UHGV virus genome: UHGV-0163678
Length of the DNA stretch: 17,995 nucleotides
Direction: 5' to 3' (one strand)
Origin: a virus
The position numbers and the translations under genes are program-made. Shown here piece after piece: positions 1 to 499 of this stretch (positions within the stretch are counted from its first letter, which is position 1; the number at the start of each line of letters is the position of its first letter). The notes beneath the pieces were generated by a model. The model searched no databases and was not told where the DNA came from. It saw only the letters and a program-made list of their open reading frames with translations.

Positions 1-319
1 CTGGATCTGATTTCAGGCGTTGGGTGTGGATCACTATTGCACCGTTCGTGACAGCTCTCTCCAGATTGCGTCTGTATTCTTTCTGTTGCCAGATCACGTC
101 CTGTGCCATGAACTTAATTGGCTTAGCGTCTTCTATGCGCTCAGGCGTTTCGTGAGTACCTTTAGCCTGAATCTGCGCTCTGCTTAGAGTAGGGCGGTGT
201 AATACTTCTGAACTTATTGCTTCTTCGCGGGCCAGTACGCCGTTAGCTAATGCCTTTGCCTTTAAACGCTCACGACGACGAGAACGTGAATTGCCTTTGA
301 ACTGAGTTCTGCGTGTCAT
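1..319 (-). CDS. N-like transcription antiterminator, N-terminal part (ORF runs off the window start)
   Basis: Minus-strand ORF starting at ATG 319..317 with a strong AGGAGG Shine-Dalgarno 6 nt upstream; my translation has no stop through position 1 ([27 protein letters not shown]...). Arginine-rich motif near the N-terminus resembles the P22 N RNA-binding motif as I recall it. Lies immediately downstream of pL and a boxB hairpin, the position of N in lambdoid phages. Confidence 0.5.
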
Positions 320-484
320 ATAGACCTCCTGATGAACTTTGGTGGTGTGGTAGGTGGGAGACCCATTTCGACCTGTTTCGGCCTACTTCAATTCGGCAAT
401 AGTCCCGCAGGCCTCGCCGCTTTACGTGCGACATATTCCCGTCCATGAACCCTTCACCACACCCCAAAGTTCACTTTGGTTATT

Positions 485-499
485 GCGCTTTGTCAGCGC
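485..499 (-). promoter_or_regulatory. nutL boxB-like hairpin (GCGCU-GACAA-AGCGC on the transcript)
   Basis: Perfect 5-bp stem with GACAA pentaloop on the minus strand, between pL and the N-like ORF. The same loop recurs in the nutR candidate at 2676..2690. Resembles the P22 boxB as I recall it, not the lambda GAAAA loop. Confidence 0.45.

Follow-up and report, generated by a model that had tools for sequence, protein, structure and literature searches.

A lambdoid prophage in which an HK97/H-19B-type N/nut module very probably flanks a lambda immunity cassette, with the N gene cut by IS100

Wild phages with lambda immunity specificity, among them mEp234 and HK106, have reportedly been described, and an account of the immunity and N region of HK97 is said to exist as well. 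HK97, mEp234 and HK106 each carry a lambda-type cI of 237 aa together with lambda operators. In HK97 (AF069529) this cI lies beside the same N allele as in the locus reported here. The mEp234 record (EF120460), which stems from that work on wild phages, already annotates a nutL boxB, a putative nutL boxA, a nutR boxA and a nutR boxB at positions homologous to those described below.

N and nutR of the Stx1 phage H-19B are a system studied separately, by Neely & Friedman and by the Sen laboratory. H-19B has an immunity region different from the lambda type. Its N reportedly needs NusA but not NusB, S10 or boxA; boxA is said to be dispensable for H-19B N, and the dyads in the spacers are reportedly peculiar to the H-19B nut sites. 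H-19B N has 127 residues, with the arginine-rich motif (ARM) 12-RSRRRER-18, loss-of-function changes at R3, S11, R15 and R18, and a C-terminal domain (CTD) suppressor at L108 (PMC3526286, PMC4499122). The H-19B nutR contains a second hairpin, located in the spacer, besides boxB (PMC3526286). Without its CTD, H-19B N still reads through the nut-proximal, Rho-dependent terminator tR1, and CTD-deleted H-19B N and lambda N both show near wild-type read-through of tR1, in vivo and in vitro (PMC3526286). The CTD-less H-19B protein is significantly defective at downstream Rho-dependent terminators and at hairpin terminators, and deletions reaching residues 88-95 cause a partial defect even at tR1 (PMC3526286).

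The DNA analysed here (the window) is a stretch of 17,995 nt from the virus genome UHGV-0163678. It covers a lambdoid prophage from its early region through the lysis genes into the head genes. Very probably, an HK97/H-19B-type pL-nutL-N segment and nutR flank a lambda immunity cassette, N is broken by IS100, and the virion genes are P22-like. The features of the immunity cassette are as follows.

561, minus strand: start of the pL transcript, by homology with the lambda and mEp234 annotation
568-596, minus strand: pL promoter, TTGACA-17-GATACT, the best promoter-like match (10/12)
570-630: operators OL1 (570-586), OL2 (594-610) and OL3 (614-630), each identical to lambda
794-815, minus strand: Timm-like intrinsic terminator at the end of the cI operon
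1624-2337, minus strand: cI repressor of lambda specificity, 235/237 residues identical to lambda cI (99%)
2348-2413: operators OR3 (2348-2364) and OR2 (2371-2387), both identical to lambda, and OR1 (2395-2411), with a single G to A change from lambda, reading TACCTCTAGCGGTGATA
2385-2413, plus strand: pR promoter, a promoter-like match
2438-2641, plus strand: cro of lambda type, residues 1-63 with 62/63 identical to lambda (98%)

The immunity specificity is that of lambda: cI and Cro are near-identical to their lambda counterparts, five of the six operators are identical and OR1 carries one natural variant. The G to A change in OR1 is common to HK97, mEp234 and the prophage of E. coli HB37, and on this comparison it is a natural polymorphism among wild lambda-immunity phages. 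The promoters pL (596-568, minus strand) and pR (2385-2413, plus strand) are the top two promoter-like sites in the first 3.3 kb. At 2620-2641 cro has a run of six A residues, versus seven in lambda, HK97, mEp234 and HB37. This 1-nt deletion shifts the frame, changes the C-terminus from KKTTA to KKQLHK and gives a product of 67 aa; it may reflect either a genuine mutation or an error in sequencing the homopolymer. The lambda-type repressor system of the prophage looks intact.

Similarity to lambda as detected by blastn is limited to positions 529-815 and 1628-2651. At the left joint, just downstream of the pL start, identity with lambda ends at about 546 and all similarity by about 529; the right joint lies at the cro stop and boxA, at about 2641-2652. 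Read from pL, lambda and the window are the same through CACAUCAGCAGGACGCACU and then diverge, and the opening motif of the pL transcript, CAUCAGCAGGACGC, is also found in P22. On the right side the two are the same through the end of cro into boxA (CGCU.UU), followed by divergence. To judge from these alignments, both joints are in short sequences common to lambdoid phages. The odd C-terminus of Cro was considered as the right joint and rejected, as it results from the 1-nt deletion in the A7 run; cro of HK97, mEp234 and HB37 has the lambda-like ending, and the joint lies a few bases further, at boxA. An earlier note on this DNA had described OL, OR, cI and cro as lambda-type and had placed the joints between pL and nutL and at the 3' end of cro. 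Both statements are borne out, the former by the counts for cI (235/237), Cro (62/63) and the operators (5/6), the latter by the blastn limits.

Outside the cassette, the N gene and the nut sites comprise the following features.

1-53, minus strand: terminal 53 nt of IS100 (IS21 family), the end reading TGTCACGAACGG...; the element runs leftwards beyond the window
54-319, minus strand: truncated N gene, codons 1-89 of an HK97/H-19B-type antiterminator N
485-499, minus strand: nutL boxB, GCGCUGACAAAGCGC, 5-bp stem and GACAA pentaloop, fold -7.1 kcal/mol
504-543, minus strand: nutL spacer with two extra predicted hairpins (543-529 and 519-504)
543-551, minus strand: putative nutL boxA, CGCACUACU, which fits the boxA consensus only weakly and is given as putative in EF120460
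2645-2653, plus strand: nutR boxA, CGCUAUUUU, versus CGCUCUUUU in HK97, mEp234 and HB37
2660-2671, plus strand: nutR spacer hairpin, GGAC-AUUC-GUCC, kept in phage epsilon34
2676-2690, plus strand: nutR boxB, UCGCUGACAAAGCGA, 5-bp stem and GACAA pentaloop

Both hairpins with a GACAA loop were thus found where the earlier note had reported them, at 485-499 on the minus strand and at 2676-2690 on the plus strand, and both are identical to the boxB annotated in mEp234 (EF120460). The nutL boxB corresponds to +63 to +77 of the pL transcript. A boxB with the same loop is present in the pL and pR transcripts alike, between the promoter and the first terminators. In the 18-kb window the 11-mer GCTGACAAAGC, common to both, is present at two places and no others, in each case on the strand that is read from pL or pR, against a chance expectation of 0.43 if one mismatch is allowed. 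Both boxB are exact hairpins in the correct orientation, beyond what chance would give. The distance between boxA and boxB is 22 nt in nutR and 43 nt in nutL, each with extra predicted hairpins; those of the nutL spacer are seen in the minimum free energy structure of positions 475-552 (minus strand; z = -2.97). The boxA elements were compared with a CGCUCUUUA-like pattern. That of nutR is one change from its relatives, a C to A substitution (CGCTATTTT here versus CGCTCTTTT in HK97, mEp234 and HB37), and that of nutL is a weak match only. They sit inside the right and left recombination joints, respectively. A scan of the whole window with Rfam at gathering thresholds gave no family match and did not detect the nut sites.

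The N reading frame starts at 319 (minus strand), 242 nt downstream of the pL start. It encodes a small basic protein with an N-terminal ARM, as the first gene of the pL operon. The ARM occupies residues ~9-20 with the core 12-RSRRRER-18, and a lambda-like RPTLS motif is also present. Residues 1-89 are identical to HK97 N. HK97 and the HB37 prophage continue beyond this point with codons 90-127, whereas in the window residues 90-127, the RNAP-binding CTD, are absent and IS100-derived sequence follows instead; the protein is cut at residue 89 and falls short of the full length of 127 aa. If IS100 has its standard sequence, 23 residues encoded by the IS follow before the frame closes, which predicts a chimera of 112 aa. 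Homology to the N family, the lack of which the earlier note had named as grounds for giving up its reading, is present: the fragment matches phrog_271, 'anti-termination protein N-like', with E = 1.4e-19. Against Pfam PF25694 the fragment scores 20.6 bits, below the curated cut-off of 27.9 bits because its C-terminus is missing; intact HK97 N scores 57.8 bits (E = 1.7e-15).

What the earlier note overlooked is, by comparison with these sequences, that the N-like reading frame is an N gene interrupted after codon 89 of 127 by IS100. Positions 1-53 match, with 100% identity, a sequence that E. coli chromosomes and plasmids carry in thousands of copies, and 53/53 nt agree with the IS100 ends that adjoin istA/istB in three fetched loci. 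The flanks of these three copies diverge right after ...CGTTCGTGACA (...GTGACA), which is base 53 of the window and also the third base of N codon 89. The window stops inside IS100 and the 3' part of N lies beyond view, so that a simple insertion, a deletion or an assembly artefact may underlie the junction; its position at the exact IS100 terminus speaks for a real transposition. A 36-mer and a 22-mer of the IS100-N junction had no exact match in GTDB representative genomes, nor was the junction present in the complete E. coli genomes. E. coli C41 (H61), considered as a match to base 1 of the window, was rejected, as it carries an unrelated IS100 in the nin region and a different immunity region.

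The N/nut module is near-identical to that of HK97 and mEp234. Nucleotide identity to HK97, mEp234 and HK106 (EF120461) is 98.2-98.3% over positions 54-816, and both boxB are identical as well as N residues 1-89. Over positions 1624-3114 it is 98-99%. The three phages share with the window the N allele over residues 1-89, the nutL and nutR boxB, the spacer hairpins, the joints, the lambda-type cI, cro and operators including the G to A change in OR1, and the cII allele. The window differs from them by IS100 in N, the C to A change in the nutR boxA and the 1-nt deletion at the 3' end of cro, and by its cargo in the rex slot, where HK97 has gp48/gp49 and mEp234 has hicAB and one ORF. Its virion genes resemble those of P22 and not those of HK97. 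The junction between the HK97-type nutL and the lambda OL was counted as present where at least 80% of a 221-nt probe was matched, and was found in 111 of 5426 complete E. coli genomes (about 2%). The pairing of lambda immunity with HK97-type N/nut is already published and common, since EF120460 annotates it and the junction recurs at this frequency.

The same layout as in the window, with an intact N of 127 aa, is found in the prophage of E. coli HB37 (NZ_CP053080). In the HB37 stretch compared (locus L008), the PGAP annotation shows just a 69-nt 'incomplete' fragment in place of the intact N (2383-2766), and it gives the name 'antitermination N domain protein' to an unrelated 120-aa ORF just downstream of N (2018-2380), which looks like a problem of annotation.

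From the residues quoted in the H-19B papers, the N of the window appears to be of H-19B type. The ARM 12-RSRRRER-18 and R3, S11, R15 and R18 are all present, and the length of 127 aa and L108 are matched by the intact HK97 allele. A spacer hairpin and a boxB hairpin are predicted for nutR of the window, as in nutR of H-19B. H-19B N is of full length, whereas the N of the window lacks residues 90-127.

Further features of the window are the two ORFs in the rex slot and the cII gene.

821-1192, minus strand: rex-slot ORF of 123 aa, phrog_6136, unknown function, with a weak sub-threshold XhlA-like match (PF10779, residues 42-88)
1179-1616, minus strand: rex-slot ORF of 145 aa, phrog_5893, unknown function
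2776-3072, plus strand: cII, a non-lambda allele of HK97/mEp234 type (PF05269, E = 6e-32), 98-99% nt identity to HK97/mEp234

The rex slot (821-1616, minus strand) occupies the position of rexA/rexB in lambda, and no similarity to lambda was detected there by blastn. Its nucleotide sequence is ~78% identical to genes 45/44 of epsilon34 and is also present in the HB37 prophage. The two ORFs gave no match to a defence system in PADLOC, and are candidate lysogen-expressed cargo of the cI operon. A strong intrinsic-terminator-like hairpin (3021-3048, minus strand) is located antisense in the 3' end of cII, at the position of the lambda oop terminator. To the right of cII follow a DUF2740 ORF, an O-type initiator, a Toprim/DnaB-like primase-helicase, the nin region, Q and the lysis genes. 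The head genes in the window are a Sf6-type small terminase, the large terminase, a P22-type portal and a scaffold. The nin region includes an ORF for an HNH endonuclease (8667-9233; PF13392, plus a weak AP2 domain) that overlaps with the start given for ninG (ORF 9148-9810). HB37 lacks this ORF at the same position, and it may represent the insertion of a homing endonuclease.

The resemblance of the N fragment to N of P22, gp24, is restricted to parts of the protein. The earlier note had seen the P22 N motif in the ARM, and BLASTP agrees, with 7/15 identities to gp24 residues 8-22, in the ARM only, at a pairwise E of 0.001. In the multiple alignment the pattern T-F-x-G-N-x-(K/R)-(T/S)-R-R-x-E-R is common to both N-termini, and gp24 is ~30% identical to the fragment overall. 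At the C-terminus the intact allele and gp24 have LPxVALYAAGxRKSKQxTAR in common, with 67% identity over ~30-33 residues. Only the first ~18 and the last ~30 residues of N resemble gp24. The middle third is unrelated to gp24 and resembles the NusA-binding stretch of lambda (HRPTLS versus NRPILS, lambda residues 34-47), so that the alignment with lambda and P22 proposed in the earlier note upheld the likeness to P22 at the two ends and showed a lambda-like middle. Intact HK97 N matches the gp24-based family PF25694 ('N_peptide'), not the lambda family N36 (PF11438). A PDB sequence search with intact HK97 N gave no match at E <= 10, and with it no sequence tie to the structure of the P22 N peptide with boxB.

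With lambda (NC_001416) the window shares gene order and logic, the core ARM TRRRER, the RPxLS motif and, in nutR, the boxA CGCUCUU(A/U). The lambda boxB loops are GAAGA/GAAAA on a GCCCU stem, versus GACAA here, and W18 of lambda N is absent. P22 (NC_002371) has GACAA loops in both boxB, a nutL boxB identical to that of the window in 15/15 positions, the same ARM pattern and the last ~25 residues, and membership in PF25694. Its nutR boxB stem (ACCGCC...GCGGU) differs, as does the central region of gp24, and boxA and boxB are about 11-12 nt apart without extra hairpins, unlike the spacers of 22 and 43 nt with predicted hairpins in the window, which do not have the P22 architecture. As the nutL boxB is identical to that of P22 and the protein belongs to the Pfam family of gp24, 'P22-like' appears a fair description of the RNA-recognition end of this N. 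The P22-type N/nut specificity proposed in the earlier note is supported as a resemblance (GACAA loop, ARM, PF25694), from which an identical specificity may or may not follow; as DNA, the module is not derived from P22.

Epsilon34, a phage of Salmonella (EU570103), provides a further comparison. Its N homologue has an altered ARM, SAAGRRRERRAALQ, with the rest of the protein kept, and both of its boxB have GAAA loops; the stems (CGGCU-GAAA-AGCCG and UCGCU-GAAA-AGCGA) and the spacer hairpin beside them are the same. These features lie at 453-640 (minus strand) and 2850-3000 (plus strand) of the epsilon34 stretch compared (locus L009). From sequence comparison this looks like natural covariation of ARM and loop within one N family. 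On the basis of the protein alone, the epsilon34 authors had already expected its boxB specificity to be a new one (PMC2629481).

In an intact system, N would be translated from the pL transcript and its central region would recruit NusA. Recombination would have swapped the immunity cassette within short stretches that lambdoid phages have in common, on the left in the ~20 nt with which the pL transcript begins, on the right at the end of cro and boxA; because the cassette was exchanged at these joints, the cis sites and N would match each other and not lambda. With IS100 after codon 89, the product would keep the RNA-binding and putative NusA-binding parts and lose the RNAP-binding domain. 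The identities, coordinates, hairpins, joints and the IS junction are as observed, and binding, mechanism and loss of function draw on what has been published about H-19B N and lambda N. Since the CTD, which binds RNAP and is needed away from nut, is missing, the prophage is on that work most likely N-defective, with processive antitermination lost and lambda-type immunity kept. A CTD-less N keeps part of its activity near the nut sites, and some early expression may then persist. The cro deletion and the C to A change in the nutR boxA may act in the same direction as the N lesion, or may be neutral.

A recombinant of lambda and P22, in which gp24 and the nut sites of P22 itself, and thus exactly the P22 specificity, were joined to lambda immunity, would account for the identical nutL boxB, the GACAA loops found in both P22 nut sites, the identities between the ARM and gp24 residues 8-22, the membership of the intact allele in a family built around gp24 with a common C-terminal motif, and the P22-like virion genes. 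It is nevertheless quite improbable: blastn detected no nucleotide similarity to P22 across N, nutL and nutR (positions 1-820 and 2652-2740), gp24 is only 30% identical to the N fragment with an unrelated middle third, the nut spacers are longer than those of P22 and contain extra hairpins, and the module is 98% identical to that of HK97. A module of HK97/H-19B type is preferred, and two further readings concern the state of N. The truncated protein could be sufficient and the prophage inducible, if the ARM and the NusA-binding region blocked Rho at nutR/tR1 and leaky read-through completed expression. CTD-deleted H-19B N and lambda N do perform near wild-type at tR1 (PMC3526286), and the remaining early and late ORFs of the window all appear to be of full length. 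This reading is nonetheless unlikely, as CTD deletions are significantly defective at a second terminator further downstream and at hairpin terminators and a partial tR1 defect was reported for deletions to 88-95 (PMC3526286), while the break here is at 89 and is followed by 23 foreign residues. The window also has a complete nin region between the replication genes and Q. In lambda, N-independent growth needs a deletion of nin, which is located between these same genes.

It is very unlikely that a repeat led the assembly to a chimeric contig end at the junction of IS100 and N and that N is intact in the organism. A start 53 nt inside a high-copy IS is a typical short-read contig break, and the junction occurs in no other genome searched (complete E. 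coli, GTDB representatives). The junction is placed, however, precisely at the final base of the IS100 terminal repeat (...GTGACA, then N), as in real transposition; three independent copies of IS100 have flanks that part at this very base, and chimeras rarely coincide with a precise IS end. An N gene broken by IS100 is therefore the preferred reading.

Lambda immunity combined with a non-lambda N/nut is textbook modular exchange among lambdoid phages and is the natural state of HK97, and beyond annotation the significance is little. Prophages of this kind are best labelled as carrying an 'HK97/H-19B-type N', not a P22 N or a lambda N. The N of the window is to be scored as a probable N pseudogene by way of IS100, which bears on the inducibility of the prophage. 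The covariation seen in epsilon34 could guide specificity experiments. Tentatively, and on sequence comparison, N of HK97/H-19B type and P22 gp24 might share boxB specificity, despite ~47% identity of the ARM and different nut spacers. If so, epsilon34 would represent a recent, traceable specificity switch within one family, and N supplied by a P22-like or HK97-type phage, whether superinfecting or co-resident, could act on the intact nutL and nutR of this prophage and could rescue its early operons once repression is lifted.
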